Notes under the pieces: model-generated
The model's database searches: none
The model's input: the letters and a program-made list of their open reading frames with translations, nothing else
What the model was told of the DNA's origin: nothing
Part shown: in pieces, positions 6,055-63,740 of the stretch
Layout: the number at the start of each line of letters is the position of its first letter
How positions within the stretch are numbered: position 1 is the first letter of the stretch
Source of the DNA: an uncultured virus (IMG/VR IMGVR_UViG_3300032213_000694)
Taxonomy: Duplodnaviria > Heunggongvirae > Uroviricota > Caudoviricetes > Crassvirales
DNA length: 64,000 nucleotides
Virus record (IMG/VR): IMGVR_UViG_3300032213_000694
Coordinates: 1 to 64,000 of that record
Strand: one strand, 5' to 3'
Program-made: the position numbers and the translations under genes

Positions 6055-6080
6055 TGAGAAATTCTTTGCTTATTATCTAG

Positions 6081-6088
6081 CAAAAATA
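6081..6088 (-). promoter_or_regulatory. Bacteroidota -7 promoter box for tail fibre gene
   Basis: TATTTTTG matches TAnnTTTG, 26 nt upstream of ATG. Confidence 0.6.
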
Positions 6089-6099
6089 CGAAAAAGAAC

Positions 6100-7937: not shown

Positions 7938-8233
7938 TTTGGTTCTTCAGCTAACGCTTCTTTTTCAGTCTTCTTTTTAGGAGCTGCAGGTTTTTCTACA
8001 ACACGTTCAACAATCTTTGTGCCGCCAGCTGAAGCAACTTGCTTTTGTTGTTGGGTATTATTGGTTGTGATATTAATCACAGGTGCAGGTGCTGACACAG
8101 CAGCAGGCTGTGCTGCCTCCTCTTCTCCTGTCAATTGTTTTGTTACATAACCACCTACACCTAGTGCGATAGTACTTGCTAATCCGATAAGGATGCTCTT
8201 CAATGAGCCTCCGCCTTCTTGTTCTTCTGCCAT
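7931..8233 (-). CDS. single-pass membrane protein
   Basis: One hydrophobic helix (ILIGLASTIALGVGGYV) followed by low-complexity tail. Confidence 0.65.
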   Translation of the reverse strand: MAEEQEGGGSLKSILIGLASTIALGVGGYVTKQLTGEEEAAQPAAVSAPAPVINITTNNTQQQKQVASAGGTKIVERVVEKPAAPKKKTEKEALAEEPKW

Positions 8234-8234
8234 T

Positions 8235-8597
8235 TTATAAATAGTTATTGTGGTTAATTGGTCTTTTTATTTCTTCTCCTGAGATGTTAATCACTTTTAG
8301 GTCATACATCCCGTGTTTTAATGTATCTAAACTAATCTTTTTAAAGCTAATAGGACTATCTGCAGTAAAGCCTAACTTTCTTACAGGCTCTTTGCCACCA
8401 AAAGTATATATTGCTAATGCATACTTTGCTCCTGGTGTTGTAGCTAATGTAACCTCAAGTGCATTATTCTTTACAACAGCTGAGTTAACAGCCATGACTT
8501 TTGACTCAGCACCTAGATTAATAGGTTCTTGAATCACGTCAATTTCCTGACACGAAATTACAAATAACAAAAATAAGAATATGATAAATCTTTGCAT
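8235..8597 (-). CDS. lipoprotein with small Ig-like (T9SS-CTD/FlgD-like) domain
   Basis: Lipobox VISC; C-terminal LDTLKHGMYDLKV resembles the L..G.Y.(L/V) motif. Confidence 0.55.
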   Translation of the reverse strand: MQRFIIFLFLLFVISCQEIDVIQEPINLGAESKVMAVNSAVVKNNALEVTLATTPGAKYALAIYTFGGKEPVRKLGFTADSPISFKKISLDTLKHGMYDLKVINISGEEIKRPINHNNYL

Positions 8598-8598
8598 C

Positions 8599-10338
8599 TT
8601 AGAAGTTGTTATAACCCGTCAACTTGATCGAGTCGGTTGATAAATTAATACCTAATTGATAGCCAGTCTTAGAGCTCGCATCCATATTAGGTGTTACTTT
8701 AATGTAGGTATTGATATCCAAAGGATTACCTATTGAACTAAAGCGTAATTTGAACGGAGTTAATTCACCTGAGATAGGAGTTTTTAATTCTCTGTCCAAT
8801 GAACCAAATCTAACCTTACCTTCTTGGTTATCTACAAATGTGTACCATGTGTTAGGTACCTCATTAATAAGTTGCTCAAACTTAACCTTAGTTGGGTCAT
8901 AAACAAACTCAAACTGCAACGCTGATACTTGTTTCGTATTAGTGTTAATTTTAACAGGAATGTCAATCGTACTAGAAGTAATGGTCACGTTCTTTAAACT
9001 CACATCAATCCCATCAGGCGTGGTTATTAATAATCTTGCTGTTTGAGACACATCAAAGTTCTTCTTTAAACTAGGTATAGCGTTGGTTGCAATCGCATTA
9101 TTAATCACCACCTGCGAGCTATGACTTCGGTTGATGTCGCCAGGTATTACATAGCGTAATTTTAATGGTAGATTCTGCCCAATTGTTGAGGTCTTAAAGC
9201 GAACATAGTTCTTAGTAAAGTTCTTCCAAGAAGATGCGGAGGCTGCATTAAACTCTGCCTCGGTGAATGTTGGTGCACTCATGTACATATCTGTGCCTGC
9301 TGCATAACCTGTAGGCAAAGTGACTAAATTATCTACGCCCGATACCTGAGAGAACAATCTAACTAAGTCTCCTGCATCAAATACTTTATTAAAGTTTACA
9401 TCAGCTGCATAATAGCCCATGCCTGTGATGATGGACTGATTCTTAAACGTTCCGTCTAAATTCTGTGAAATAAACTCAGCTTGTGCTGTAGTGTAATCTG
9501 AAACTGTTACAGCCGCAGAAGATAAGTCCTTAATCGTGTCCATGTTGAACATAACCCTAACGTGATAGACAGTATTAGCCGCAAATCTAGTTTGATCAAC
9601 AGGGATGGTGCCATCTGACAAAGCATCTACGGTGTATGTTTGATTAGTCACCGAGTCTGTAAATGCCACTCTGTGCAATGACATAGGAGTCACATTAGCG
9701 TTCGCATCAATAGAGGCCGTTAAGTATTTGCTCGCTGTTGGGTCAAGCATAATAACACTCGTTAATGGGGTAGTCATTACTGTTGATCCGTTGCTGCCAT
9801 TTTGATTGAACGCTGCAGCAAAGTTCATTTTAATCGGGTCCCATGCAAAACCTGGTGCATCAGTCTTTAATCTATACTTTAAGTTTAACAACCTGCCCTT
9901 ACCTAGGCCACCACTATTAACTGACCAGTTTAAGTAGACACGCATAATTGTTTTTGGACCACCTTGAGTAAAGGTGTAAGATGAATTATAATAACGCACA
10001 TTACCATCTGCTACATTATTAGCCGAGGTTGATTGCCAAGCATAGCCAGGGTATAGATAATAACTCATTGTTGACTGCGAGTTAGCAGGCAATATGGTAT
10101 TTGAGTTTGTTACATTGATTAACTGTAGTGCATTGTTAGGATACTCAAAATCAAAATACAAAGCACGAGTGGTTAGGTTGCCACTACCATCTGCGTGTAC
10201 TTCTACATCTAATGTGTCACCTTTGTTTATGACATTACCCTTAGTATTTAGATTATTAGTGTCATTAGGGAAGTAAAGTTTAACAGTCTGTGCGGAGGCA
10301 CTTACCGATAACAATAACAAGAAAATTAGGTGTTTCAT
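8599..10338 (-). CDS. secreted cohesin- and dockerin-like domain protein
   Basis: Signal peptide; cohesin-like GDTLDVEV...FDFEYPNNALQL and IDIPVKI...SALQFEFVYDPTKVKF; dockerin-like AADVNFNKVFDAGD and GDIN. Confidence 0.65.
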   Translation of the reverse strand: MKHLIFLLLLSVSASAQTVKLYFPNDTNNLNTKGNVINKGDTLDVEVHADGSGNLTTRALYFDFEYPNNALQLINVTNSNTILPANSQSTMSYYLYPGYAWQSTSANNVADGNVRYYNSSYTFTQGGPKTIMRVYLNWSVNSGGLGKGRLLNLKYRLKTDAPGFAWDPIKMNFAAAFNQNGSNGSTVMTTPLTSVIMLDPTASKYLTASIDANANVTPMSLHRVAFTDSVTNQTYTVDALSDGTIPVDQTRFAANTVYHVRVMFNMDTIKDLSSAAVTVSDYTTAQAEFISQNLDGTFKNQSIITGMGYYAADVNFNKVFDAGDLVRLFSQVSGVDNLVTLPTGYAAGTDMYMSAPTFTEAEFNAASASSWKNFTKNYVRFKTSTIGQNLPLKLRYVIPGDINRSHSSQVVINNAIATNAIPSLKKNFDVSQTARLLITTPDGIDVSLKNVTITSSTIDIPVKINTNTKQVSALQFEFVYDPTKVKFEQLINEVPNTWYTFVDNQEGKVRFGSLDRELKTPISGELTPFKLRFSSIGNPLDINTYIKVTPNMDASSKTGYQLGINLSTDSIKLTGYNNF

Positions 10339-17382: not shown

Positions 17383-18939
17383 TTATGCTCTAATGTTGGT
17401 TATCACCGTCTCTGTGGATAGCAATGTGGTAGCCACTGACACCGCATTCTTGAGTGCTTCTTTAGTCACCTTGGTCGGGTCAATGATCCCAACGCTCATC
17501 ATGTGGCAGTAGGCCCCTGTTGCCACGTTTATGCCTAGACCCTCTTTTGACAACTGTTGTCCCTGGTCAAAGTCTTCTGCGTTCACGTCGATCCCAGCGT
17601 TAGCTAGTATGCGCATCATTGGTGCCACCATCGCTAGTCGTAGTATCTCATCACCCTTGTTATTCTCATCCATCTTAGCAGCGATGTCTTTTAGAGCCAC
17701 GCCACCACCTGGCAGGATGCCCTCTTCTAGTGCTGCTCTAACCGCACACACCGCATCGTCCACCCGGTCCTTCTTCTCCTTCTGCTCAATGTCTGAGTTA
17801 GCACCCACCTTGATGACACCCACGCCACCGCCTAGATTAGCGATGCGTTCTTTTAAGAACTCTTTCTCTATCGCCTGGCTCTCCACGGCCATCTGCTCAT
17901 TTAACTCCTCTACTCTCTCCTCGCCTGCACCCTCTGCATCGAAGATAATTGTATTGAAGCGAGAGCTGACAATCTTACTCGCCCGTCCACAGTCGTCAAT
18001 GGTCGCCATTAGCAAGTTGTCACCCGTCTGCTCCGAGAAGTACTTAGCACCCGTCGCAATTGCTATGTCCTGCATGATCTGATGACGCTTGTAGCCAAAT
18101 GATGGAGGAATAATTGTGCACACCTTTAGACCACTCTTAATCTTGTTCACATTAAGCGTGTTTAGCGCATTCTCATCTAACTCCCCAATGATCAATAGCG
18201 AGCCTCTGCCCTGGTGTACAAACTCAAGGATAGGCAAGATGTCGTTGATGTTTGTAATGGGTTGGTCAGTGACCAAGATGTATGGCTTGTCTAAGATGGC
18301 CTCTTGTTTCTTGTGGTCTGTTACAAAGTACTTACTAGCGAACCCTCTGTCCACCTTCATCCCGCTCACCACCTCAGCGTATGTCTCAGCGGTAGCCGAG
18401 CTCTCTACTGTCACCACGCCTGATAGGCCAACTTGATTGTACGCATCAGCGATAATCTGTCCAATCTCTGCGTCGCCATTAGCGGATATAGTTGCGACAT
18501 CGACCAACTTATCTGATGTAATCTCTGTCGACATAGCCGTTAGCTCATCAGCCACTTTAATAGCTGCAGCCTGCACATCTCTTAATACTTGTGTGGTATT
18601 GTCTTCTTTAGTTAGCACACCAGTTGCCGCATGGATAATGGCCTGTGCCAGCACCATACTTGTCGTCGTGCCATCGCCTGCCGAGTTGGCAGTCTTCTCA
18701 GATGCTTCTCGCATGATCATGACAGCTAGGTTCTCAGCTGGGTCCATTAAGTTAATTGACTTAGCGACCGTCACTCCATCCTTGGTGACCGTGATGCCAC
18801 CAATGTGTTGCTCGGACTCAATGAGCACCGTGCGACCACGAGCCCCTAGTGTTGACCCCACAGCGTTAGCTATGGTATTTACGCCTTTGATTAATTTCTG
18901 TCTGCCTTCACTTCCGAAGACGATATCTTTTACTATCAT
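17383..18939 (-). CDS. groEL: chaperonin GroEL
   Basis: TKDGVTVAK, AGDGTTT, KKDRVDDA, EEGILPGGG, GIIDPTKV; no GGM tail. Confidence 0.97.
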   Translation of the reverse strand: MIVKDIVFGSEGRQKLIKGVNTIANAVGSTLGARGRTVLIESEQHIGGITVTKDGVTVAKSINLMDPAENLAVMIMREASEKTANSAGDGTTTSMVLAQAIIHAATGVLTKEDNTTQVLRDVQAAAIKVADELTAMSTEITSDKLVDVATISANGDAEIGQIIADAYNQVGLSGVVTVESSATAETYAEVVSGMKVDRGFASKYFVTDHKKQEAILDKPYILVTDQPITNINDILPILEFVHQGRGSLLIIGELDENALNTLNVNKIKSGLKVCTIIPPSFGYKRHQIMQDIAIATGAKYFSEQTGDNLLMATIDDCGRASKIVSSRFNTIIFDAEGAGEERVEELNEQMAVESQAIEKEFLKERIANLGGGVGVIKVGANSDIEQKEKKDRVDDAVCAVRAALEEGILPGGGVALKDIAAKMDENNKGDEILRLAMVAPMMRILANAGIDVNAEDFDQGQQLSKEGLGINVATGAYCHMMSVGIIDPTKVTKEALKNAVSVATTLLSTETVITNIRA

Positions 18940-39279: not shown

Positions 39280-42200
39280 TTAGAACTTCACTTTTGTTTT
39301 TGATTTAGAAGCAGTTTTTTCTTCTTTAGCTTTCTTTTTATTTTTCAAAGCTTGATTCTTTACAATCTTCTCGATGTTTGTTCCATAACTCAAGAATTCT
39401 CTTGGCCCTAATGTACTAGCAGTTATGGCTCTAGGTATCAAGGATAATTTTAGTTGTTTCTTCTGCTCCTCTGTGTATTCTGTTTTATTCCCATACTTAT
39501 CAGTGAAGTAACCTTTGTCTGCATCTTTATACGTTTGGTATATTTTATACAATGTTTCATAAGCGACATTCGGAACACCACCAATTAAGGACATTAAACT
39601 TTCTCCCTCTTTCGGGTCTTTTACATAGAATCTAAATGGAGTATCTAGCCTTTCTTTTTTCTTTGCTGTCTCTCTTTCTTGTAATGTTTTTCTAGGTTTA
39701 CGTTTGCCCTTTACTTTTTTGCCTAATAATGATTCTGCATTTTTAGCAGCTTCTTTCTCGGCTTCTTTTTCAGTTTCTTTTTTAGCTTTTAGTTGTTCAT
39801 CTGGAGTACCTCCTTCAATCATATCTAAAGCTGAATTAAGGCTTAATAATACTAAATCAGATGTAAATTCAGGTAAATTAAGAGCAAATTCATTAAAAAG
39901 TTTACCATAAAATATCTTATCCTTAAATTGTTCGTCTAGTAATTTATCCTCTTCGTCTCTATCGTCTCCACCTAAAGAAGCATATGCTGCTGCTAATAAC
40001 CATCCTTGTATACCTCTTTGAACCCATTCGAATATATATGATTCAGCAATACCGGATGCTAAAGATTGTAAAGCAACAGCTTTATCTTCAATGTTAGAGT
40101 TTTTAGATGTAAGTATTGTTATATTTCTTGCATTCTTATCCTTTAAGTTAAATTGATAAGACGCAAACGGAAATACCAATTGACGAATAATCTTTGTGGT
40201 TGGATTTTTAGATGCAAGTAACTTTCCTCCCAACTCAGATACGTTCATATTTTGCTGATCTTGAACCATATATTCAGCGTAATCAGCAGCCTCTTCGTTT
40301 ATTTCGTGAGTTTTCCAGTCAATATTTGTATCTAAACCTAAGTCCTTTAGTTTCTTTCTGTAGTATGCAAACCAAGAAACTTTAGCTACAAAAACGTCAG
40401 GCTTTTTTAAGAATGTTTCAATATAGAAATCACTTATATTTGAAGCACCATCTACCAATTGGTTTACATTCTTATTTTTATTCCTCTCTATTAAATTCTC
40501 TGCATAGTCTATGGATGTTTGAGACTCTGCACCACGCAAAGAAATACCATATCCAGAATTATTTAATGCTTTTATAGCATCATCATTCATATAATCTGCA
40601 AAGCTATTAAGATAAGCCTGTGGGTCGTCAATAGTATTGATTAATGTATTAAATGTCATAGGCAATGATTGCTTAACAGCAGCATTCATAGATCCTAAAC
40701 CAATCTTTGTACCCATACGACTTACAGTAGAGAGTACCTTAGCTGCAATCTTAGTTTCATATAAACTAGATGTATCTGATCGCTCTCTTAATGCATTTAT
40801 ATTAAACATCAAACGATCCTTAATCATTTGTCTTTGATTGTAATCAGGAATCATTTCTTTGAATGCGTTTGAGTTTATATAACCCATATACCTTTGAACA
40901 AAAGGAGTTGTTCTTACATCTATTATGGTTCTTTCTAAAGCTTTAATATTACCAGAATCAAAGTCATAATCTCTAACACGGGTAACTTCATTATTCGTCA
41001 TAGGAAGACCTTCTATTCTATTTATTTTTTGTAACGTACCAACACGCTCAGTTTTTATTGCATCAAAATCCATTTTAAACGAACCTTTAGTCAATAAATC
41101 AACGCTTGTATCTGAGGCTAATTTTTCATACATCTCAGGGGTATAGTTTGTATCTTCACCTAGAATTATACCATAATAATCGGCCGCCATTCTCTTAAAT
41201 TCAGGATAGTATTTTTTCCATTCGTTTTGGAATTCCTGAACAGCAGTTTGATTTATAGGATCAATTTCTTTCTTAACACCATCGATATCTTTTTTATCTT
41301 TTATTTTTTGATATACCTGGTCATATAGGTCAGCTTTCTTGACCAATAAACTGTCTTTCGTCTTTTTCAATTCTTCAATCGTAAGACGTAATTGCTTCAT
41401 CTTTCTATCGAACTCTTTTTTAATTTCCTCAGGAGTTCCATTTAGAATGGTTCTAGATAAATCAGCAAATATACCACGCTCGTATGCATTATATGCTGTA
41501 TAGAAATCTTGGTCATTTGGTCTAGAGCCTTTAAATCTTTCTGAGTATTTATCAGCAAACTTATTAGCAATACTTTTACCATCAACAAATCCCTTAACAA
41601 TTCCAGAAAACCCAGAGTTTCTTAAGAACTTAATACCCTTGGCTGTGCTTCTAAACATATTGACAACCAAAGAGTCCACCTTTGATACATAGCGACCCCA
41701 TAGAGAACTATATATCTTACCAGCAAGAGGAATTCGTCCTAATAATCCATAGATTAATGGTTGGGCGACTAAACCTGCATTTAAATCTTTATCGGAATTA
41801 GTAACACCAACGTATGATTCATACACAGCTCCCATTCGAGTTGTAATACCATTAACGATTAAGTTCTCTAATGCATTTACAGCAGCCAATTGTTTATCAA
41901 GAGGCAATGCTTCAATGTCCATATTTAAGAAATTGTTAATCAAATCAAAATCGGCATCCAACTCATCAATCTCCCCGTTGGCCATCATATCACGTACAAC
42001 ATCAGAGAACCCTTCAAAGGCATTCTTAGTATATTCTTTTACTATGTCGGACTTAGTAGAATCTGCATTCTCGACATTCTCTTCCACTGATGAGATGTAA
42101 TCTTGAATTTCTTCTAATGACATCGTGTCGTCAATTAGTTTTGCATCCACCAAATATTGGTATTGATCCAATAAGATATTTTTATTTATCTCATCTTGGA

Positions 42201-45200
42201 TATCTTTCTGCTCTTTAACATAGTCATTTATTTCAGACAATACAGCTGCACGTCTTGCTAATACCTCTCCTTTAACTACTTTTACACCACGTACCGCATT
42301 GAACATTTGCTCAGCATAATCAATATACTCATCAATATCCTCTACTAAACTTGGTCTGATAGCTACGAGTCCTCTTGCTGCAATCTTAATATCATCAACT
42401 ACAGTATCTGACTTAATAGCTTTCTTAATCTTAGATCGTAAATCATTAGCCTGAGCAACTTTAGCTGCATATTCAGCGTTATCTAATACACGTTCAACTC
42501 TATTGAAGAAGTTCTCACGTATAGTAGGATTCATCAAATTAGATTTCAACCCATTCAATAAAACATTAGCCTGAGCTTGAGTTAACTTGTTCCCTTTCTG
42601 AAGTGACTTTATTTTATCTACCGCATTAGCAATGCTTGTTTGCACTGCTTTAGTGGCAACCTTTGCTCCTTTAGCTTCTGCTTTTAATGTAGCTTTCAAT
42701 GCATCTAATTCATTGATAGCAATCTTATCTAAAGATCCTTTTAGAATACTATTTACTTTCTCTATGAATTTTTTTCTAGCATCTACTGTGTCTAGCTTTT
42801 TGCCTAATGCATTGAATACAATATTAAGGTCTCTTTTACTTAATGCACCTTTGATATTTTTCTTTACATAATCATTAATAAGCTTTCTTGCTTTTTCTGC
42901 AAAATCAAATCCTGTCTTAGCAGCCTTAGATTCTACTCGCAACTTTTCTTTTAATCCTGTAACTTCATTAACAGGAACTTTCTTACCAGGCTCTTGACCT
43001 AATATCTTTTTAGTTGATGAGGCTTTCTTACCTTTTGTAGGTGTGACAGGCTCTTCTGTTACTTGCTCAACTACTTCTTCAGGTTGAACTTCTTCAGTAA
43101 CTGTAACCGTTGGGCCACCGGTAACTTGCTCAGTGACTCCTTGAGTTGTTGGAGTTTGTTCGATGGCTCCGAAGACTTCATCGATGTCTTGTTCTGTTGC
43201 ATTTTGCTCAAAGTTTTTAAGTGTGTATTGGTAAGCTATCTCTTGAGCACGTTGCCCACGGATTGTTCTTTTTTGATTGTTATCGGTATCTAAGTTTACA
43301 GATACTACATCACCATTTTCATCATAATTAATAGCAGCCATTGGATCGCTATAATTATTTAGTAAAGTATTACCCTCTATTGTTACAGAGTTGTCATCGT
43401 TTACTGTGATTTCTAAAGGTGCCTCCTCAGAAAGACCTAACTCTTCTAGAGATTGGTCTTGTATTTCATTGATGTTGCCAAGTTCAGTAATTCTATCGTC
43501 AGATTCAAACACAACTGTGCCATTCTCTTCAGTATACAAACTGCCTCTTTTGCCATCTAATGTAAATACTTTAGGCTTATTTACTGCATCAATTATTGTT
43601 ACAGCTGGGGTAACGACCTCTTCTGTAGTAGTTACTACTTCTTCAGCAGGAGTTACTTCTTCTGCTTTAACTTCTTCGGTAACGACTTCAGGTTCTGCTT
43701 GGGGTTCTCCTTGCGCCACTTCTCCGCTAACTCCGGTTTCTGGCTGTACAGGTACTTCACTTGTTGTTTGCTCTTGAACGGCATTTTCTGGTATTTTAGA
43801 TAGTTGTTCGTTATTTTTATTTATTATCGCTTGCTTACTTTCAATTTCAGCTGCAATGTTTTTAACTAATTGCGGATTTTTATTTGCCATATAAGCAGAT
43901 AAATCATCAATCTCATTTTGGACTTTCTGATTCTGTGCAATTAAAGCAAAAGCTTCCCTTTGTCCTTTAGTAGAAAGATTGTCAGGTATTTCCTGCAATA
44001 TTTTTTTGCTATTAGCTAGTTCTTTTATAGATGCCTTAGCTTGATCTTCAGTAATCTTACCTTCGATAAATTGCACTTGCAAGTTTGCTAAAGTGGCTGT
44101 CATATGGTTGTCATCCAACACCAAGTCTCTCCACTCTTCAAAGTCAGCATCACTCATTTGCTTTCCTGACAAAGCTCTTTGGGCTCCTGAAATTGTACCA
44201 CCCATAATAAGACCACCTAAGCCTTCTACGTGTGCATCATATAAAACCTTATCTAAAAATTCACCTGAAAGTAATTTAGGGTTTTCAAATAAGTCAATAT
44301 TATTTGCCTTATCATAAATTTCCTTAGTAACAGTTTCTGTAAAGGACTGAAGACCACCAGTTTCAAATTCACTTAAGTAGGCTTTTGCTGCGGTAGTTCC
44401 GCCTTGTAAAATCATCTTACCTACAGCACTTTCTGCAACCTTTTTAGTAGCTAATTCTATAGCTCCTAACGTAGCATTTTTAGGAACCTGAGACAATACC
44501 ATATTGGTAAATCTACCCAACAAAGGAGTGCCTTTACCTAATACATTTCTAAATCCAAAATCCTCTAAGAATCCAGATACAATCGCAATGGGAAGTGTTA
44601 TCTTCTTTCTTTCGTTCTCATCCATTGAAGCTGTCTGAGGATTGTTATCCATCTCTTCATTTAGATTAGCATACATTTGCATTGCACCTGTAGCAAAACG
44701 ACCATATCCACCTGAAGCCATCATAGGAATACTTTCAGCAACACCTAATACGGCCTGAGCAATATCCCCTGACTTCTTTTTTTCTTGAATAAATTCCTCG
44801 GTAGTACCCTCAGATTTTACTCCTTCATAACCTTTCTTTAGAATTGGTTTAAACTCATTAATAACTTCTTTCTTAGAAAGGTCTTTAACTTTAGTTTGTA
44901 TTTGATCTTCGGTAAGTTTGCCTTTTGATTCTTTTATAACCTTGTTTCTTAGCTCAGATTCCTTTTGCTTGCTTGCATAAGGTATCCCCATTAAATCAAG
45001 TATTTCAATACCTGCATCAATGGTTGCCCTTTGCATACCTTGGCCATACTTTTCGAATCCAGTTACAACAGAATTCCAAAGAGCACCACCCCAATTACCT
45101 TGCTTGGCTTTTTCTGCATAGTTTTGAGTGACTAATTTATTTAATCCCTTTACATCTTGATTTAACTGTGCAATATCTTGGTTTACAGTTTCAGCCTCTT

Positions 45201-45804
45201 TATTTAATGATTCTTTTTGATTTTCTAAAGTAGCAATCTTAGCATTGACCGATGGGTCATTAGGGTTTAATTCGATGTAAGCATTTAACTCATCGTATTG
45301 TTTTGACAACAAATCAGCCCTCTTTTTAAAATCGGCTTGTTTAATAGATAAGTCTTTTGATTTACCGCTTAAAGCTTTACCAACAAAATCAACATCTTTA
45401 GTAACACTCCCTTTAGGAGCGAAAAAAACGGGATTGGTATAATCAAATTTATTCTTCTTTTTTGATGGGTCTAATAATAGCAATCCCATGCTTTCTCCTT
45501 GTGTAGGAGATTTTAATATAGAACCCTTTTGACGAGGAGCCGTAGGTGAAGCAGACGCCCCAGAAACAGACAGAACTTCTTCTGTAGGTTGTGACGGATT
45601 TTTTTTTTTAGCTTCGCCAAAAAACTGAGTATAAAACTCTGTTTCAGGCTTGGTATATAAATCTTCAGAAACTAATAATCCATGTAATTTTTTTTGAGAT
45701 TCAGGATTTGAAAACTGCTTCTCAAAATCATCAAATGATTTAGTGTAAAGATTCTCACTTACCAATAAATTATGTAATTTTTTTCTGCTAGTGTTATCCA
45801 TCAA
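39280..45804 (-). CDS. very large internal virion/ejection protein
   Basis: 2174 aa, largely helical, last gene of structural operon; no RNA polymerase DxDGD motif seen. Confidence 0.65.
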   Translation of the reverse strand: MMDNTSRKKLHNLLVSENLYTKSFDDFEKQFSNPESQKKLHGLLVSEDLYTKPETEFYTQFFGEAKKKNPSQPTEEVLSVSGASASPTAPRQKGSILKSPTQGESMGLLLLDPSKKKNKFDYTNPVFFAPKGSVTKDVDFVGKALSGKSKDLSIKQADFKKRADLLSKQYDELNAYIELNPNDPSVNAKIATLENQKESLNKEAETVNQDIAQLNQDVKGLNKLVTQNYAEKAKQGNWGGALWNSVVTGFEKYGQGMQRATIDAGIEILDLMGIPYASKQKESELRNKVIKESKGKLTEDQIQTKVKDLSKKEVINEFKPILKKGYEGVKSEGTTEEFIQEKKKSGDIAQAVLGVAESIPMMASGGYGRFATGAMQMYANLNEEMDNNPQTASMDENERKKITLPIAIVSGFLEDFGFRNVLGKGTPLLGRFTNMVLSQVPKNATLGAIELATKKVAESAVGKMILQGGTTAAKAYLSEFETGGLQSFTETVTKEIYDKANNIDLFENPKLLSGEFLDKVLYDAHVEGLGGLIMGGTISGAQRALSGKQMSDADFEEWRDLVLDDNHMTATLANLQVQFIEGKITEDQAKASIKELANSKKILQEIPDNLSTKGQREAFALIAQNQKVQNEIDDLSAYMANKNPQLVKNIAAEIESKQAIINKNNEQLSKIPENAVQEQTTSEVPVQPETGVSGEVAQGEPQAEPEVVTEEVKAEEVTPAEEVVTTTEEVVTPAVTIIDAVNKPKVFTLDGKRGSLYTEENGTVVFESDDRITELGNINEIQDQSLEELGLSEEAPLEITVNDDNSVTIEGNTLLNNYSDPMAAINYDENGDVVSVNLDTDNNQKRTIRGQRAQEIAYQYTLKNFEQNATEQDIDEVFGAIEQTPTTQGVTEQVTGGPTVTVTEEVQPEEVVEQVTEEPVTPTKGKKASSTKKILGQEPGKKVPVNEVTGLKEKLRVESKAAKTGFDFAEKARKLINDYVKKNIKGALSKRDLNIVFNALGKKLDTVDARKKFIEKVNSILKGSLDKIAINELDALKATLKAEAKGAKVATKAVQTSIANAVDKIKSLQKGNKLTQAQANVLLNGLKSNLMNPTIRENFFNRVERVLDNAEYAAKVAQANDLRSKIKKAIKSDTVVDDIKIAARGLVAIRPSLVEDIDEYIDYAEQMFNAVRGVKVVKGEVLARRAAVLSEINDYVKEQKDIQDEINKNILLDQYQYLVDAKLIDDTMSLEEIQDYISSVEENVENADSTKSDIVKEYTKNAFEGFSDVVRDMMANGEIDELDADFDLINNFLNMDIEALPLDKQLAAVNALENLIVNGITTRMGAVYESYVGVTNSDKDLNAGLVAQPLIYGLLGRIPLAGKIYSSLWGRYVSKVDSLVVNMFRSTAKGIKFLRNSGFSGIVKGFVDGKSIANKFADKYSERFKGSRPNDQDFYTAYNAYERGIFADLSRTILNGTPEEIKKEFDRKMKQLRLTIEELKKTKDSLLVKKADLYDQVYQKIKDKKDIDGVKKEIDPINQTAVQEFQNEWKKYYPEFKRMAADYYGIILGEDTNYTPEMYEKLASDTSVDLLTKGSFKMDFDAIKTERVGTLQKINRIEGLPMTNNEVTRVRDYDFDSGNIKALERTIIDVRTTPFVQRYMGYINSNAFKEMIPDYNQRQMIKDRLMFNINALRERSDTSSLYETKIAAKVLSTVSRMGTKIGLGSMNAAVKQSLPMTFNTLINTIDDPQAYLNSFADYMNDDAIKALNNSGYGISLRGAESQTSIDYAENLIERNKNKNVNQLVDGASNISDFYIETFLKKPDVFVAKVSWFAYYRKKLKDLGLDTNIDWKTHEINEEAADYAEYMVQDQQNMNVSELGGKLLASKNPTTKIIRQLVFPFASYQFNLKDKNARNITILTSKNSNIEDKAVALQSLASGIAESYIFEWVQRGIQGWLLAAAYASLGGDDRDEEDKLLDEQFKDKIFYGKLFNEFALNLPEFTSDLVLLSLNSALDMIEGGTPDEQLKAKKETEKEAEKEAAKNAESLLGKKVKGKRKPRKTLQERETAKKKERLDTPFRFYVKDPKEGESLMSLIGGVPNVAYETLYKIYQTYKDADKGYFTDKYGNKTEYTEEQKKQLKLSLIPRAITASTLGPREFLSYGTNIEKIVKNQALKNKKKAKEEKTASKSKTKVKF
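43653..43784 (-). CDS. overprinted small basic protein (MPFKS family) nested in +1 frame
   Basis: MPFKSKQQVKYLYSQKPELAEKWRKENPKQNLKSLPKKLKQKK*; A-rich leader CTAAAATACCAGAAA. Confidence 0.65.
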   Translation of the reverse strand: MPFKSKQQVKYLYSQKPELAEKWRKENPKQNLKSLPKKLKQKK

Positions 45805-57149: not shown

Positions 57150-58235
57150 TTATAATTTTCTTATTTTTAGTCTGCTACCATGATCATTATCCAAAGCCTT
57201 AACTGAGAACCCACCTTTTTCAACATGTTGTGGAGCGTTTCTTACGCTCATGTCGATGTTTTTGCTTTGACGAACTGAGTCATCAATTGCATCTGCTTTG
57301 CCCATATCATAAAAGAATTTGGCCATTGCATCAGGGTTCATTGCCGCAGCAATTGTTTTATGATACTGTTTAGCATCCTTAATGTATCCATCTTCATTAA
57401 CAAAATTGTTAAAGAATTTAGAAATGTCTGTTTGTTGAGCTTTCAGCTGCTCTGGAGTTCCCGGTTTGTAAGAAATCTCTTTATCTCCAATCTTGAAATC
57501 AAAACCTTTGAATTCATCAGAGAATAAATCGTTTGTCTTATTAATAAAGTACTCCGATTTTTTAGCCTGCTCCTGCTGCATAGCAGTAGATTGGCTAATA
57601 TATTGCTTGTAAGATTCCAAAGCAACTTTGTCTTCATCAGGAATTGAGTACTCCATCCTCGACTCAAGGGGAGCTTTATATTTTTCCTTTTGTTCTTCAA
57701 AGTACTTTGACGCCTTGCCAAGTTCTTTTTTAAGTGCTAATTTTTTGCGCTTGATTTCTTTCTCATCATCCTCATCTTCATCATAGCTAAATCTTGATTC
57801 GTACTCGAATGCAATATCCTCATCATCAAAATCAGGATTAGTTTCACGCATATAATCAGCTAGAAGCCTTTCTGGTGTAACCTTAGAAAAATCTTGGTTA
57901 ACACGGTAGAAGTCTTCTAAACCACGCCCTGTCTCTTTCTTAAATTTTAAGAAAGCATTAACATCTTCAGGCAATAACTCCTGTTGAGGCTGTGGTTTTT
58001 CTGTAAACAATTCATCCAAAGAGTCTACCTCCTTGTTGAATTTCGTTTTCAAATATGAAAGAACGTCGTTATCACCAAAACTAGGTGATTCTATTACTGG
58101 CTCTTGTATATGCACTTCCTCAACAGGAGCTACATCTTCAGCCATCTTTTGTTCGTGGTCATCAAGCAATTGTTGCTCGATTTCTTGCACAGACTTTTCC
58201 TCAAAGTCTACAAGTTTTACTTTAATATTTTCCAT
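57150..58235 (-). CDS. capsid scaffolding protein (putative)
   Basis: Very acidic coiled coil between portal and capsid genes. Confidence 0.7.
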   Translation of the reverse strand: MENIKVKLVDFEEKSVQEIEQQLLDDHEQKMAEDVAPVEEVHIQEPVIESPSFGDNDVLSYLKTKFNKEVDSLDELFTEKPQPQQELLPEDVNAFLKFKKETGRGLEDFYRVNQDFSKVTPERLLADYMRETNPDFDDEDIAFEYESRFSYDEDEDDEKEIKRKKLALKKELGKASKYFEEQKEKYKAPLESRMEYSIPDEDKVALESYKQYISQSTAMQQEQAKKSEYFINKTNDLFSDEFKGFDFKIGDKEISYKPGTPEQLKAQQTDISKFFNNFVNEDGYIKDAKQYHKTIAAAMNPDAMAKFFYDMGKADAIDDSVRQSKNIDMSVRNAPQHVEKGGFSVKALDNDHGSRLKIRKL

Positions 58236-58272: not shown

Positions 58273-60705
58273 TTATCTTGGGTTAAACTGCTCTAAGCTG
58301 AAGCCGTCTAACGAATCTTCTTGAGACTCAAAGTTCATCGCAGGTAGGTCTTTTTGACGTTGCTCAATTAACTTTGATTGCTGAGTAGCTTGGAGTTTTG
58401 TGCGATCATCCTTAGCTTTCTCTTTGTCCATATCTAGTTGCTTAATCTTCTCAACCTCCATACCTTTTAGTTGCATGTTGTAATTGAATTCAACCGACAT
58501 TAATTGCTCTTTAATCTGAGCTTCAGCTTGCATTCTTTGTACATCCAACTGCATTTGGTTTTGAGCAATCATAGCTTTAGCTTGTGCCTCAGCTTGAATA
58601 GCTTGTAACTTAAATTGAGCTGCCGCTTGAGAAGATTGGATATTACCTTGAGTTTGCATTTGGATTTTTGCTTGCTCATTATCCATATCTTGCTTCTGCT
58701 TATTCTTACGTTTAAGTTTTAGCAATTCGTTGGCAATCTTAATATTCTTCATTTGACGAATATCAATAGCGTCCTCAAGTGTGATTTGATCACGTTGTAA
58801 AGCCATCTGAATATTCGCTTCTAGCTGACCTCTTTCTTCTTCGTCAGGAGCAACCTCAATAAATATACCAAAGTCATGTAAGTACAAGTCCTTAATTTCT
58901 TCTAAAATAGCAACATTGTATTTACCAATTTGCATTGTAAACTCTTCTTTGAAATCAGAGTATTCTAATATATCCGCAACACGAAGAGACAACGCCTCCG
59001 ATAATCTGCGAGTAATAAATAAACTTCCCTCTAAGATGTGACGAGTTGCAGTATTTGAATTAAGTGCTGCAAGCTTTTGAACACCTACTAATGCATCAGG
59101 GTTTGGAGTAGAAGCATCACGTGCTTCGTTCAATCCTGTTACATCACGTATCATGCTAAGATACTGATTGTATGCATTAATCAATGCAGTAATCTTACCT
59201 TGGCCACTATTAGTGTTGAGTTCTTGAATTGGTATACGGCCATGGTTTAAGTCACCATCAGTTGTCATGCTGCGTCCAATAACACTACCCGTTTGGAAAT
59301 ATAAACGTAAAGCATCTTCAGGATTGTAAGAAGCACCTGTACCCAAGTCAACTTCATTGATACCATCAGCATCGATGAATACACCATCTGGTACAACACG
59401 TTGTAGAACTTGTTGTAATTTAAGATGGGTCATTTGAATTAAGTCAGCAAAAGGAATCATACGACGAGTCAACGACTCAACAATTCCTTTGTACATTCTT
59501 GGTGCTACAGCTATATATTGTGGTAATGCATACTGAGAAGCAGATTTAGGGCGAACCATATTACGAGCAAGCTCCCACTTAAGTAGATAAGGAGATCCAG
59601 GTACCATAATACCTTCGTACCATACGTCAATTCTCTTCTCAATTCTCTCAAACCTTTCTTCAGTTCCTTCCGGAGGATTAAAGTTCTCATCTTTTTGTAT
59701 TACACGAACACCATTGTTCTCAAGATATTTCTTCTTGTAAACAAATGTCTTATCTGTTTTATAATTAAAATATAATAACGTAACCACATCTCTGTTAAAG
59801 ATGTCGCTACGGTACGGACGCATGATGCCGTAATAATTGTACCACGCAGTTCCTAATTGCTGAATCTCTGCCAACTCCTCTTTTGTAATGTCTGGCTTAA
59901 TCTTAATTAGTTCTGTGATTGGTACTTGCTTTACTTCTCCCCAATAGAAACAATCGTCAAATGTTGGGGATTCTGTGTAACTATATACAATGTTAGCGGG
60001 GTCAACATACTCCACACGAACTCCGGTTCCTGGTACAAAGGAGTGTTTTACTACGCCTATGCCGATTGTTGTGATGTCGTAGTCGACCCTTTTACGAACG
60101 TCTTGGTAATGGTTTAAATCTAAGATAGTATTGATTGCCTCTTCTTCTGCAATCTCAATAGCAGGCTTATATTTAAGCTGCATATATAAAGATAACTCTT
60201 GCTCGTTCTCAGGGATATCTTGCTCAGGAATGTTATAAGCATCAACACCTAATTGTTCTTTACCTATTTTTAAAACATCTTTTGCAATCATATCCCTTTC
60301 AACCATCTGTTGAAATCCAAATCGATTGTCCATTGACATTGCGTCTTGCGCATATGCTTTAACCTCAAATAAGCGATCGTGCATACCGTTAACAACGATG
60401 TCAACAAACTTAGGGATAATAGGGACAGGAGTCCAATCAAGGTTAAGGTGCGACATATCGCCATCTACCTCTAATTGGCTTTTGTATTTTGCAATAGGTT
60501 GCTCGCCACGAGCATAAAGCCTAACTCTATGGAAATCAATCCATTGTGAATAGTATCGGCAACTATTGCCTGTCTTTGCAAACCATTCGTATGAAATGCT
60601 TTGCCCAATTCTTAAGCCATATTCCCAAGATGCCTTTTCCTGATCAGTCGCTAACTGCGAGGGGAATTGGGTATCTGGCATTAATATTCCAAGAGGTTTG
60701 TTCAT
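58273..60705 (-). CDS. portal protein
   Basis: 810 aa after terminase; PIIPKFVDIVVNG, TGLNEARD; Q-rich C-terminal coiled coil. Confidence 0.85.
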   Translation of the reverse strand: MNKPLGILMPDTQFPSQLATDQEKASWEYGLRIGQSISYEWFAKTGNSCRYYSQWIDFHRVRLYARGEQPIAKYKSQLEVDGDMSHLNLDWTPVPIIPKFVDIVVNGMHDRLFEVKAYAQDAMSMDNRFGFQQMVERDMIAKDVLKIGKEQLGVDAYNIPEQDIPENEQELSLYMQLKYKPAIEIAEEEAINTILDLNHYQDVRKRVDYDITTIGIGVVKHSFVPGTGVRVEYVDPANIVYSYTESPTFDDCFYWGEVKQVPITELIKIKPDITKEELAEIQQLGTAWYNYYGIMRPYRSDIFNRDVVTLLYFNYKTDKTFVYKKKYLENNGVRVIQKDENFNPPEGTEERFERIEKRIDVWYEGIMVPGSPYLLKWELARNMVRPKSASQYALPQYIAVAPRMYKGIVESLTRRMIPFADLIQMTHLKLQQVLQRVVPDGVFIDADGINEVDLGTGASYNPEDALRLYFQTGSVIGRSMTTDGDLNHGRIPIQELNTNSGQGKITALINAYNQYLSMIRDVTGLNEARDASTPNPDALVGVQKLAALNSNTATRHILEGSLFITRRLSEALSLRVADILEYSDFKEEFTMQIGKYNVAILEEIKDLYLHDFGIFIEVAPDEEERGQLEANIQMALQRDQITLEDAIDIRQMKNIKIANELLKLKRKNKQKQDMDNEQAKIQMQTQGNIQSSQAAAQFKLQAIQAEAQAKAMIAQNQMQLDVQRMQAEAQIKEQLMSVEFNYNMQLKGMEVEKIKQLDMDKEKAKDDRTKLQATQQSKLIEQRQKDLPAMNFESQEDSLDGFSLEQFNPR

Positions 60706-62915
60706 ATCTTGTTAATTCTACTGAAGGAACCAGTGTTATCGTAAGTTGCAAATTTAATGCTTATTTTTGACTCTTTTTTCTCAGGCAAATATACGTGCTT
60801 TTGATTTGCCATAATAGCATACCCTGAACTAATTGAAGCATCATACTTTGTTCTGTCATTTACATCGAATCTAGCCCAATCTTGAAGTGTTTTATTAAAC
60901 GGCATATCTCCTATCTCATCAGGCTGACGGTAGTTACCCTCCATATCTAAACCGATAAATCGCTCAATGTATGTCTCAATTGCTGTAGCGTGTGCCTGCT
61001 TAATATCTTCACTTGATGATGGTATGCCACCAATCTCTCTTTCTGTGAATGATAGTTTGTGAGCTGGCTTGTCGGGCCTGTTCATTGAGAACCCACGGTA
61101 GCCTCTATTCTTAAAGTGATAAAGAAGACGTGCCTTGTTATTCTCGCAAAGTATAGGCATGCCGTAGAACACACAAGCCATCAGCACCTCTTCAAAGAAT
61201 ATCTCTGCCGTCTGTGGACGAGCAATGTATTCTAAAAAGAAAGTATTGGATGGGGCTCCTGTCATATTAAACTTGGTCAATCCGTGGAGCGAACCGTTTG
61301 ATCCACCAAAGGTCGCACCTGAGATGTCGTAGGGGTCACAACCAAACGCACCAATATGCTCATTACCCGGATATCTATTCCCATTTTTAGTAATATAATT
61401 ATTGTTCACCCCGGGCCCTGGTATCCAAGATACTAAGAACCTACCGTTCTTATCAGGTGTCCAAATAACCTTGGTGTCTTTCTCTCCGTTAGCCCAGTGA
61501 AAGTAGCCACGTGTTATGACGTGGTCTTGAATTAAGCTATCATTGTAGTCTATCTGCTGATAGATTTTAGTCAAGTTAAACAAAGATGACTTGGTCTCAT
61601 CACGGAAAGCGTGTGACTCTGTTCTAGGAAACTGACGATAAAATTCATTTAGTGCATCAGGGTTAGCCTTTAGCGATGACACCTCATTATTCCAATACTC
61701 AATTACCCCTTGCGTTATCCAAGTCCCCTCTGCCGAACGTACAGGCTTCTCAGGTTTTTCTAAGACTGCGTGACCATACTCGTCAATATATCCCTCAAAG
61801 TTATACTCCATCGGGATAAAGAGCGAATACAGACCTGATATAGTCTGACCATTCTGGTTTCTTTTCTTAACGTTTGAGTCATAGTAAATCCGTTTATAGT
61901 TTTCTCCGCCTTTGTCGAGTGCATTTGATGTTGATCCCATCATACACTTGCCAATAATTCTAGCACCTAAACGAAGACAAGTTTTTCTGACACGCCAACC
62001 GTTCTCTATGTTCATAGGACGCTCTAACTTAGCAGCCTCATCCTCAACCAAATATAACAATTTTTCTCCATCATAACTGTTGTCCGCTGTGTTACGCCAG
62101 TCAATAGTTGTATCCAATCCGTCAATCTCTTCCTCATTCTCCTCGTGCATATTCTTACGAGTAATCTTAGAAGCTGGAACACGGAAGGCAAGCTCTGTCT
62201 TTGGAGCAGACATACCATCACGCACGGGTTGGAAAAAGAATGGATAGTTATTTGCAATCGGAACTACCTTATCGGTAAACATCTTCTTAGCATCGGGGCC
62301 CGTCTTAGATGTTAAACCTATACGAGCATCCTTAGCTAAGGTTGCAATGTTGACTGCTTCTGATGAAGCCATAAAAGAGAAACCTGAACGACGGTTCTTA
62401 AGGTAACACATGCCAAAGCATCTGCTGTCAGCCTTACACGCTTCCCAAAATATAAAGAATATCCTGTTTGATTCACGGAAGTCAGGATGACCTACGTCAG
62501 TCTTTGACCATTGCAGATACATATAATGTGCACCTGTGATGTAAGTCTTCTCACTATTGTTGATAAACCAATACCCTAACTCACGTCTGTCAAACTCTTT
62601 CTCGATGTAGTCTACCCATTGAGACTTAAATGAATTGTCACGACGGTTCCAATCAAAGATGGTCTTGATGCGAGATAGTTCTTTAGGTAGCTCTGTGGCT
62701 TTCCATTTGTTGCCATCGTAGTCAACCTTGTCAGGAGCCAATGGCAGGGCAACTCTTAGCCCACTAATATTGTACACCTCCCCAATCGTGCCATCTTTTG
62801 ACACGACCACAAAGTCGTACTCAGGGTCCCAGCCATACTCCCAATCTTTCTTTGCATTTCTTTTTGCAAGAATCTTATTAGGAACATTAGACTCATCAAT
62901 ATAGAATAAACTCAT
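60702..62915 (-). CDS. terL: terminase large subunit
   Basis: K.RR.GFS (Walker A variant), DEAAK (Walker B), GST.N, nuclease GCDP, ENN, D..ISSG. Confidence 0.9.
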   Translation of the reverse strand: MSLFYIDESNVPNKILAKRNAKKDWEYGWDPEYDFVVVSKDGTIGEVYNISGLRVALPLAPDKVDYDGNKWKATELPKELSRIKTIFDWNRRDNSFKSQWVDYIEKEFDRRELGYWFINNSEKTYITGAHYMYLQWSKTDVGHPDFRESNRIFFIFWEACKADSRCFGMCYLKNRRSGFSFMASSEAVNIATLAKDARIGLTSKTGPDAKKMFTDKVVPIANNYPFFFQPVRDGMSAPKTELAFRVPASKITRKNMHEENEEEIDGLDTTIDWRNTADNSYDGEKLLYLVEDEAAKLERPMNIENGWRVRKTCLRLGARIIGKCMMGSTSNALDKGGENYKRIYYDSNVKKRNQNGQTISGLYSLFIPMEYNFEGYIDEYGHAVLEKPEKPVRSAEGTWITQGVIEYWNNEVSSLKANPDALNEFYRQFPRTESHAFRDETKSSLFNLTKIYQQIDYNDSLIQDHVITRGYFHWANGEKDTKVIWTPDKNGRFLVSWIPGPGVNNNYITKNGNRYPGNEHIGAFGCDPYDISGATFGGSNGSLHGLTKFNMTGAPSNTFFLEYIARPQTAEIFFEEVLMACVFYGMPILCENNKARLLYHFKNRGYRGFSMNRPDKPAHKLSFTEREIGGIPSSSEDIKQAHATAIETYIERFIGLDMEGNYRQPDEIGDMPFNKTLQDWARFDVNDRTKYDASISSGYAIMANQKHVYLPEKKESKISIKFATYDNTGSFSRINKI

Positions 62916-63193
62916 TTAGTTTTTGCTCTTTGTTCTGCGAATCCACGATTAGTAGGTGCAGAGTTACCAACTACTCCCTCAATAATATTATTCTCCTCCT
63001 CGACTCTTTTAAGAATCTCAAAAGCATCCATGATAGCAAGTTTCTTTGCTGCCGCTGCGTTCTTAAGTTTGTCTGCAGACAAGTCATCATCCATGTGGGT
63101 GACAATCTTCTCTTCAGCAACTTTAATCAACTCCTCAACGGCTTTATACCCAGAGTCAATAATACGCTTTTTTAACTCGGTTATTTTATTCAT
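62912..63193 (-). CDS. terminase small subunit (putative)
   Basis: 93 aa helical protein coupled to terL. Confidence 0.55.
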   Translation of the reverse strand: MNKITELKKRIIDSGYKAVEELIKVAEEKIVTHMDDDLSADKLKNAAAAKKLAIMDAFEILKRVEEENNIIEGVVGNSAPTNRGFAEQRAKTK

Positions 63194-63740
63194 TTAATTT
63201 GATTGTTACATTCTTAGTGTACACACGATATAGAATCTCGCCATCTAGGTCGAACTCATACTCGCTATCAGGCTCAAACGTGACCATGTCGCCATCTTTT
63301 ACACCTAAGTCTAGTATCTCATCGTTCGTGTATCTTATCGTGCCTGTAAGAGGCTTCTTTGCGTCTGCTGTAGTAATGCCTTCAAAGTCATTATCGATTG
63401 GCTTGATGAATAGATATCTACCGATTCCTTTCCACTCACCACCTGGCTTCTTATACGCATATGGATCGTCGACAAAGAACAAATCCTCTCGGAAGTAATT
63501 CCAAGCAGACTTCTCTCTACCACGCATGTCATAGTACAACCTGAAAGTATTATGATGGCACACAATTGTGTCGCCAGGCTCGATAGGCCCAGTGTAATTA
63601 ATAGGGGTTGAGATAACAACAGCTTCTCTTGTCGTTACACGATGATCTTCTTTAGAGGTGGAAATGTAAAGTTCTCCTCTTTGATTATCATACCTGTTGC
63701 CCCCCTTCGGTGTTACCAAATAATAGTAAGGGCTCCGCAT
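63186..63740 (-). CDS. tandem GroES-like co-chaperonin
   Basis: Two GroES-like halves: YLVTP...AVVISTP...IEPGDTI and IGRYLFIKP...GTIRY...VKDGDMVTF...EFDLDGE.LY.V. Confidence 0.65.
   Translation of the reverse strand: MRSPYYYLVTPKGGNRYDNQRGELYISTSKEDHRVTTREAVVISTPINYTGPIEPGDTIVCHHNTFRLYYDMRGREKSAWNYFREDLFFVDDPYAYKKPGGEWKGIGRYLFIKPIDNDFEGITTADAKKPLTGTIRYTNDEILDLGVKDGDMVTFEPDSEYEFDLDGEILYRVYTKNVTIKLNE

Follow-up and report, generated by a model that had tools for sequence, protein, structure and literature searches.

In bacteriophage lambda, Rz1 is embedded in the +1 frame of Rz and the two genes encode the two-component spanins, in which Rz1, an outer-membrane lipoprotein with a lipobox cysteine, pairs with the product of its host gene in lysis. 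In phiX174 of the Microviridae, B in A, E in D, and K are same-strand overlaps, which are regarded as overprinted de novo in tiny genomes that are under size constraint. Here we describe a nested gene that resembles both arrangements in part. In a stretch of 64,000 nucleotides (nt) from an uncultured virus of the Crassvirales (positions 1 to 64,000 of IMG/VR record IMGVR_UViG_3300032213_000694; this whole stretch is called the window in the following), an open reading frame (ORF) at 43653-43784 on the minus strand lies, shifted into the +1 frame, within a late virion gene of 2174 codons. Comparison with related phages makes it very probable that this ORF is a genuine gene for a basic protein of 43 amino acids (aa) that belongs to the family phrog_1375, and that the linker encoded by the large gene over the same bases is the younger reading of an older gene.

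As in the case of Rz1, a complete small gene would lie inside a larger phage gene, on the same strand and in +1, with both frames open, and it is of a kind that tends to escape annotation. Unlike Rz1, the peptide has neither a cysteine nor a signal sequence in its translation and its host gene encodes a giant virion-module protein. Furthermore, the nested gene comes from a wide family whose members are mostly stand-alone or N-terminally fused, and the cassette occurs in two unrelated host genes. An embedded spanin pair of the Rz/Rz1 type was considered and is ruled out, as the peptide lacks a hydrophobic segment as well as a cysteine. With the phiX174 overlaps the locus shares same-strand dual coding in which one frame is more constrained. 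However, the nested gene seems to predate the overlap, the genome has a size of 66.5 kb, and the younger reading is the linker of the large protein.

A 43-codon reading frame within a late virion gene

The two reading frames concerned are the following:

43653..43784, minus strand: candidate small gene of 43 codons and a TAA stop, read in +1 relative to the host gene and encoding a basic phrog_1375-type protein
39280..45804, minus strand: host gene, 2174-codon ORF of about 6.5 kb, the last one in the virion module

Read from ATG to TAA, the nested ORF translates into MPFKSKQQVKYLYSQKPELAEKWRKENPKQNLKSLPKKLKQKK, and it sits entirely within the host ORF, its codons beginning 1 nt after the host codons. 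ORF calling and translation reproduce in this respect what a preliminary description of the window, made from the letters alone, had reported. The host ORF starts with TTG and comprises 2173 aa if counted from the next ATG. Its product has a conserved N-domain (about aa 118-717) and a C-domain (about aa 1027-2167), and the cassette is located in an acidic linker directly after the N-domain (aa 674-717), where the host frame across the bases of the nested ORF encodes the acidic stretch NAVQEQTTSEVPVQPETGVSGEVAQGEPQAEPEVVTEE. The cassette has a G+C content of 0.477, compared with 0.345 in the host gene, and the phrog_1375 family is present as a single copy in the whole genome of 66,517 bp.

The length of the ORF is not used as evidence, because codon-shuffled genes give about one ORF this long. 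The host gene contains three same-strand alternative-frame ATG ORFs of at least 43 codons, and 1000 codon shuffles of the gene yield a mean of 1.08 such ORFs, with at least one in 68% of the shuffles. By length alone, the nested ORF might be a chance ORF without function. What takes it beyond chance is its homology and the comparative data, and conservation together with family membership contradicts such a chance origin so clearly that we give it practically no weight.

A search of the peptide (P0001) against PHROGs v4, in which family matches have no curated cut-off, gives phrog_1375 with an expectation value (E) of 0.0034 and 18.8 bits, residues 3-38 aligning to profile positions 17-55 of 70. 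The same region of this profile is matched by 14 of 17 relatives tested (E 1.5e-5 to 0.05), and 11 of 22 longer proteins that carry the domain, which we name MPFKS after its N-terminal motif, match phrog_1375 at E ≤ 0.001. A word-indexed protein search retrieves 18 small proteins of 42-54 aa, 14 of which are 79-93% identical to the peptide. When a 72-member profile was searched against 1.84 billion cluster representatives, 3158 of them were found at E ≤ 1e-3 and 207 at E ≤ 1e-10, and the domain occupies nearly always residues 1-40 of proteins of 43-420 aa. Members of the family are found in sipho- and podoviruses of cyanobacteria and actinobacteria. Some are unannotated stand-alone ORFs in intergenic gaps, as in Phage C75C1, Synechococcus phage S-CBS2, and Prochlorococcus phage P-RSP2, and others are annotated, as in phage 023Pt_psg01 (39 aa, between the portal and a head protein) and in Streptomyces phage FlowerPower (gp48). 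The resemblance to a family of stand-alone small phage proteins, which the preliminary description had pointed out and proposed to check by profile or BLAST searches, is therefore borne out by the phrog_1375 match and by stand-alone homologues in these phages. The stand-alone proteins share with the peptide the family, the length, an N-terminal MPFKS..Q, a P..A..(W/F) core, and a basic tail. They differ in that their genes lie alone between other genes, whereas the gene in the window and those in most of its giant-gene relatives are fully nested; in three of four stand-alone homologues checked, the equivalent of the host frame is interrupted by 2-3 stops.

No Pfam family is matched at E ≤ 1 by the peptide or by 11 of its relatives. 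This includes DUF3008 (PF11450), to which the KSKAQ motif may bear a resemblance; the only sign of it is an Atlas lead (score 0.85) in which the family is noted on 15% of the cluster members.

Stand-alone MPFKS genes are situated within clusters of small and very basic genes, at 3687-4435 in S-CBS2 (locus L002), at 3842-4336 in locus L077, and at 4080-4247 in locus L001, and several of the ORFs in these clusters are unannotated. One gene of the L077 cluster encodes an HNH_3 protein (E 3.6e-9), and S-CBS2 gp046 and L077 have in common a family of about 84-96 aa that shows a ...SF.ARH..N/C... motif. In phage 023Pt_psg01, a GroES gene is found near the stand-alone MPFKS gene.

A peptide-pattern scan of IMG/VR provides at least 414 relatives among the 600 pattern matches listed, and the best 80 serve as a peptide-found set. 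ATG and stop codon are kept in all 80 of these viral loci. An MPFKS... ORF of at most 80 aa is present in 76, and in 73 of these it is spanned by a same-strand ORF of at least 384 aa, with the host codon always 1 base ahead of the small codon; the three exceptions are L082, spanned by a 99-aa ORF only, and L077 and L078, in which the gene stands alone. The remaining four loci also start with ATG but deviate in sequence, two of them with MFKSKQQ, one with MPFKGKQQ, and one by a deletion of four codons; only entire codons are affected, and the host frame stays open across the stretch inspected. Because these loci had been picked through the peptide, a second sample of 74 loci was collected through the host protein only, by alignment of the C-domain and the pattern [YVI]x[DS][LY][DSN]FDxNN, and some of its contigs are common to the first set. 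Among the 70 loci with a complete 5' end of the host gene, 51 contain the nested gene according to a hidden Markov model (HMM; E ≤ 1e-3) and another three contain a divergent copy (MPYKSQAQR...), and all of these 54 copies lie in +1. In the four loci with an incomplete 5' end, one copy is present and three loci have none. The conservation of ATG, stop, and frame that had been put forward as a check in the preliminary description is thus seen in 80 of 80 peptide-found loci and in 54 of 70 host-found loci.

Among isolated phages, the genomes of 68 Flavobacterium phages of the elemo group match the window only at 43647-43799. In elemoA_13-1A, a homologue of 42 codons is nested in the gene for a 3694-aa 'structural protein', and the large gene alone is annotated there, as expected from the earlier claim that standard annotation misses the small gene. 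The protein is missed because gene-calling programs do not allow one gene to lie entirely within another. The elemo giant protein is tied to the gene of the window through the cassette only; tblastn searches with the host N- and C-domains against isolated phages gave no match at E ≤ 1e-5. Judged by titles and by the opening parts of abstracts, literature searches returned no description of the nested gene.

Selection on the two frames and the nested start codon

When the full host gene is compared by blastn with 79 loci, the five 30-nt bins over the small ORF match 66-73 of them, the adjoining bins match 21 and 7, and bins elsewhere match 0-4. As judged from these alignments, the small ORF is the sole stretch of the 6.5-kb host gene that is conserved at the DNA level. 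Where the flanking host domains can be aligned, they show 22-36% protein identity, and identity of the peptide amounts to 74-94% in such loci, e.g., 93% in L004 and 74% in L025.

Such a sharp island of DNA conservation with raised G+C might also be a conserved nucleic-acid element, e.g., a structured RNA, a regulatory sequence, or a site of recombination, which is open in +1 by chance and encodes no peptide, and the body of the ORF is predicted to fold somewhat more stably than background (mean z -0.76). However, variation in the island follows the codons of the small frame with a periodicity of three. For the ungapped core of 37 codons (65 unique sequences, taken from 71 of 76 loci), the entropy at small-frame codon positions 1, 2, and 3 is 0.54, 0.29, and 0.94, respectively, and from this order (3 > 1 > 2) it follows that the third positions of the host frame vary least. 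A total of 92 unique sequences (112 loci of both sets) yielded 46 independent nearest-neighbour pairs. Within these pairs, 334 differences leave the small protein as it is and alter the host protein, and 66 do the reverse, at 59.6 and 78.3 opportunities, respectively. Per opportunity, changes for which only the small frame is silent are 6.6 times as frequent as those of the opposite kind (binomial p = 5.6e-62), and the crude ratio of nonsynonymous to synonymous changes is 0.17 in the small frame and 2.38 in the host frame, these being pair counts that ignore transition bias and not the output of a tree-based codon model. A nucleic-acid element is also hard to reconcile with indels that comprise whole codons, with homologues at the protein level that have unrelated DNA in GC-rich phages, and with the occurrence of homologues as N-terminal domains of longer proteins. 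We therefore regard this explanation as highly improbable, even more so than the frameshifting discussed below.

To the extent that selection can be read from aligned sequences, purifying selection acts mainly on the small protein. The suppression of synonymous variation in the large gene, which the preliminary description had suggested as a check, is present in the least variable host third positions and in the discordant changes, and the claim that the acidic linker hosts a second, basic protein as real coding sequence is backed by conservation and by selection on the small frame.

The small ORFs differ in codon usage from the host genes outside the overlap:

Third-position T: 3% in the small ORFs, 36% in the host genes
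TTC as the codon for Phe: 99% in the small ORFs, 32% in the host genes
TAC as the codon for Tyr: 91% in the small ORFs, 38% in the host genes
AAC as the codon for Asn: 83% in the small ORFs, 34% in the host genes
AAG as the codon for Lys: 77% in the small ORFs, 43% in the host genes

Through this bias, the host frame stays free of TAA, TAG, and TGA and becomes rich in E, Q, V, P, A, G, and T. Within the overlap, it contains 20% E, 14% Q, and 13% V, and no F, W, H, or C. A count of T at stop-risk sites (0 of 749) was set aside in favor of this contrast in codon usage, as a value of zero is circular, by construction, for loci that had been chosen as nested. The alignments and the codon usage indicate that both frames are maintained, the small frame for its sequence and the host frame for openness and composition. 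The linker in frame 0 would tolerate most changes as long as it stays open and non-sticky, and the comparison of codon usage supports the idea that these demands of the host frame bend the synonymous codon choice of the small gene.

Translation of the small gene would probably proceed from a start of its own on the late mRNA, and the sequence in front of the nested ATG has features that suit this:

43785..43814, minus strand: leader of the nested ATG, A-rich and predicted to be weakly structured, itself host coding sequence

Among the 25 nt before the ATG, 14 are A, which is equalled in only 7.6% of 25-nt windows of the host gene. With a matrix derived from 35 of the window's own gene starts, the context of the nested ATG ranks second among 150 ATGs of the host gene. 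Across related loci, the sequence upstream of the ATG is variable (entropy 1.44 bits) yet consistently A-rich, with A at positions -2, -3, -5, -8, and -11 to -13 in 51-59 of 69 unique sequences against a background of 35-39% at host codon positions. Folding of the region from -30 to +20 is predicted at a mean of -1.7 kcal/mol, versus -6.5 kcal/mol for the host-gene background, and z is above 0, i.e., the region is less structured, in 52 of 53 loci. The A-rich leader mentioned in the preliminary description recurs in this way across the related loci. Bacteroidota start translation without Shine-Dalgarno pairing, on A-rich unstructured leaders, and the host of this phage is probably a member of the Bacteroidota. 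Most likely, ribosomes would start independently at the nested ATG on the late mRNA by means of this leader. No internal promoter motif was noticed by eye, a dedicated scan not being part of the analysis.

A second +1-frame ATG ORF of 43 codons (MQQNKTSMKSS...) is located at 43071-43202 on the minus strand, over the next acidic linker of the host gene, and its ATG has the top upstream-context score among all 150 ATGs. It is kept only in near relatives (L003 with 100% and L087 with 95% identity), weak similarity being detected in L036, L032, L089, and L088 (E 0.048-3), and it has no Pfam match. It may be a chance ORF or a young second nested ORF.

Several observations weigh against a genuine and independent small gene at 43653-43784. 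The match of the single peptide to phrog_1375 is modest at its 18.8 bits. Most loci were found via the peptide, and this choice accounts in part for the invariant MPFKS among them. No copy whatsoever is detectable in 16 of the 70 host homologues of the second sample, for which reason the nested gene is, on this comparison, dispensable in some lineages. The start-context matrix is weak, the leave-one-out median of real starts being 2.3 versus 4.6 for the nested ATG. Finally, a metagenomic database protein of 1075 aa (P0022) carries the peptide in frame at its C-terminus, behind an N-terminal part of a giant protein.

P0022 may represent a variant that is naturally split or fused, a product of frameshifting that was called as a gene, or the result of an assembly indel. 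If a programmed +1 ribosomal frameshift occurred, a truncated N-terminal fragment with a basic tail would be formed and no independent small protein; P0022 has such an arrangement and the window possesses A-runs right before the ATG. However, in the small frame the distance between the ATG and the nearest upstream stop has a median of 4 codons (range 0-29 in the 69 unique sequences), and this leaves little room for entry by frameshifting. The variable upstream sequence and the lack of an A-run before the elemo ATG mean that there is no conserved slippery site. Also, the ATG would hardly be kept in every peptide-found locus, the domain would not begin at residue 1 across the family, and stand-alone genes would not be expected, if frameshifting were the only way to read it. 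We judge frameshifting to be very improbable and prefer the reading of a nested gene with its own start.

Polarity of the overlap and a second host gene

Since the small-protein family is far wider than the family of the host gene, the small gene seems to be the older partner and the acidic linker the younger reading. On the basis of these distributions, the overlap is not a de novo birth of the small gene. The preliminary description had spoken of a gene overprinted inside the large one; the nesting holds, and the de novo origin implied by that word does not, given the 3158 cluster representatives in which the domain mostly starts at residue 1. Rather, the linker of the giant gene would read through a pre-existing small gene or would have received it in frame.

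The cassette is not confined to the giant gene. In contigs of the type of locus L043, an arrangement found in 11 of the 76 loci, it is located in the acidic region at the N-terminus of a protein with 378 aa that is encoded between the portal and a phrog_13704 structural protein. The host-frame reading of the cassette is closely similar in this protein and in the giant gene. The 378-aa protein is an orthologue (38% identity over 278 aa, E 2e-49) of the product of another gene of the window:

57150..58235, minus strand: gene in scaffold position, between the portal and the phrog_13704 structural protein; no cassette in the window

As far as these comparisons go, the same dual-coding cassette is present in two non-homologous host genes of related phages. 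The C-domain of the giant gene was not matched in four records of the L043 type, which is uninformative as these records are 41-83% complete.

In L155, a giant-gene homologue without MPFKS gene, the +1 slot is filled differently. It holds, at 8169-8357 on the plus strand, a basic ORF of 62 aa, MPLKKAQNQSKK..., that matches Pfam DUF6496 (E 2.1e-7, 31.6 bits versus a curated cut-off of 24) and that has an A-rich leader and raised G+C as well.

These observations bring up the possibility that the gene is real and a selfish or mobile dual-coding cassette, which persists through in-frame insertion into tolerant acidic linkers of late genes, has no virion role, and serves, e.g., host takeover, defence, or counter-defence. 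Its presence in two non-homologous genes, its absence from the host homologues mentioned above, and the replacement by a DUF6496 gene in L155 are in line with this idea. On the other hand, distances between small ORFs rise with distances between host C-domains at close range and then reach a plateau (rho 0.17, Mantel p 0.045), and because of this relation at close range the data fit mainly vertical descent under constraint, with occasional relocation.

Compared with known nested phage genes, this locus stands apart in four respects. The nested partner is the older and more constrained one, it belongs to a very large family, it occurs in two non-homologous host genes, and an unrelated Pfam family can be found in the same slot.

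Possible roles in the virion and significance

The genome is complete, with direct terminal repeats, and the window covers most of it. On the minus strand, the terminase gene (60702-62915) is followed by the portal gene (58273-60705), the gene in scaffold position, several genes of 'virion structural protein' families, and, as the last one, the 2174-codon gene. Elsewhere in the window, and all on the minus strand, there are genes for a GroEL-like chaperonin (17383-18939, phrog_5725, E 3.6e-130), for a GroES-like co-chaperonin (63186-63740, phrog_13932, E 2.8e-20), which is distant from the GroEL-like gene, and for a tail-fibre-like protein of 1702 aa (946-6054) with matches to a 'collagen like minor tail' family as well as to several families of tail fibres.

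The host protein of the window has no significant match in Pfam or PHROGs. The preliminary description treats it as an ejection protein, a putative designation, and suggests that the small protein may be packaged together with it or act as its chaperone. Of 11 homologues scanned with Pfam, two contain Kinase-PolyVal, one LPD23, and one Phage_L5_gp82, and seven contain none. Phage polyvalent proteins are encoded beside late virion genes and are predicted to be packaged, and ParB, metallopeptidase, and kinase domains are among those described in them (Iyer et al., 2017; PMC5512222). The late position of the host gene, as a giant gene that closes the virion module, and the PolyVal-type domains of some of its homologues would fit such polyvalent proteins as far as the host gene family is concerned, and elsewhere the MPFKS domain is fused to domains of similar kinds. 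Two differences are that the window's own protein has no recognised effector domain and that the word 'overlapping' is not found in that article.

In the longer proteins of the small-protein family, the MPFKS domain is N-terminal and the C-termini are variable. C-terminal partners comprise a ParB-like nuclease (P0062), a P-loop AAA domain (P0079), and HExxH motifs recognised by eye (P0094 and P0096), and other tails are Gly-zipper-like or Gly/Ala-rich. In L164, a protein of 1344 aa (5001-9035, plus strand), encoded after an HNH endonuclease gene, is headed in frame by the MPFKS domain, which is fused in this case and not nested. The neighbours of stand-alone or fused members include terminase (L077 and L168), HNH endonucleases (L077 and L164), and portal or head proteins (023Pt_psg01, S-CBS2, and L043). 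Several neighbourhoods are uninformative, and the one of the Gly-rich fused members (L162) gave no PHROG matches.

For the idea of a mobile cassette without virion role, these data can be read in both directions. HNH endonuclease genes adjoin family members, and the fusion partners include nuclease-, kinase-, and peptidase-like domains, of which related kinds (ParB, metallopeptidase, kinase) occur in polyvalent conflict proteins (PMC5512222). The repeated association with head and packaging neighbourhoods and the mostly vertical descent speak against it, and we consider it unlikely, if clearly less so than the other alternatives.

An AlphaFold2 model of the peptide is compact, with a predicted local distance difference test (pLDDT) score of 84.1, helices at residues 6-15 and 17-26, and N-terminal residues that pack on the K-x-L-P segment. 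Foldseek searches gave only weak rows in BFVD, which are small uncharacterised phage proteins (best E 0.13), and nothing significant in the PDB (best E 5.4), and the best hit of VIA-align among 48,161 chains (Z 2.5) is not significant either. The idea of a ribbon-helix-helix-like DNA-binding dimer was dropped because none of these fold searches gave a significant match.

Elsewhere, the MPFKS domain would form the N-terminus of varied effector-like proteins, and here it would be made as a free small basic protein. From the fusions and the neighbouring genes one might tentatively propose that the domain of about 40 aa is a head- or packaging-associated adaptor or anchoring domain, in the present case released as a free basic protein from the late mRNA. 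Capsid-targeting peptides and MuF-type carrier domains come to mind as analogies. A broader and somewhat more speculative proposal is that acidic linkers of capsid-internal phage proteins are slots for +1 cassettes, such as phrog_1375 and the DUF6496 gene of L155, which move between host genes and are expressed from late mRNA, and that the MPFKS domain is a general head-targeting or DNA-anchoring domain which, free or fused to nuclease-, kinase-, or peptidase-like cargo, loads proteins into virions.

Annotations, among them those of 68 Flavobacterium phage isolates with sequenced genomes, lack a protein that is better conserved than the surrounding 6.5-kb gene. The locus offers a clean experimental handle, as mutations of the start codon and stop mutations are possible that are silent in the host frame. 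The second base of the nested ATG coincides with the third base of an Asn or Asp codon of the host frame, for which reason ACG in place of ATG would not alter the host protein of either the window or elemo, and in the window TAG in place of TGG at Trp23 would be silent in a Val codon of the host. It reverses the usual view of overlapping genes, in that the nested gene seems to be old and constrained and the linker of the large gene younger. It also points to a very large family of small proteins, for which the fusions suggest a role in equipping virions. If acidic linkers are indeed slots for such cassettes, a hidden layer of genes would exist in hundreds of environmental phage contigs.

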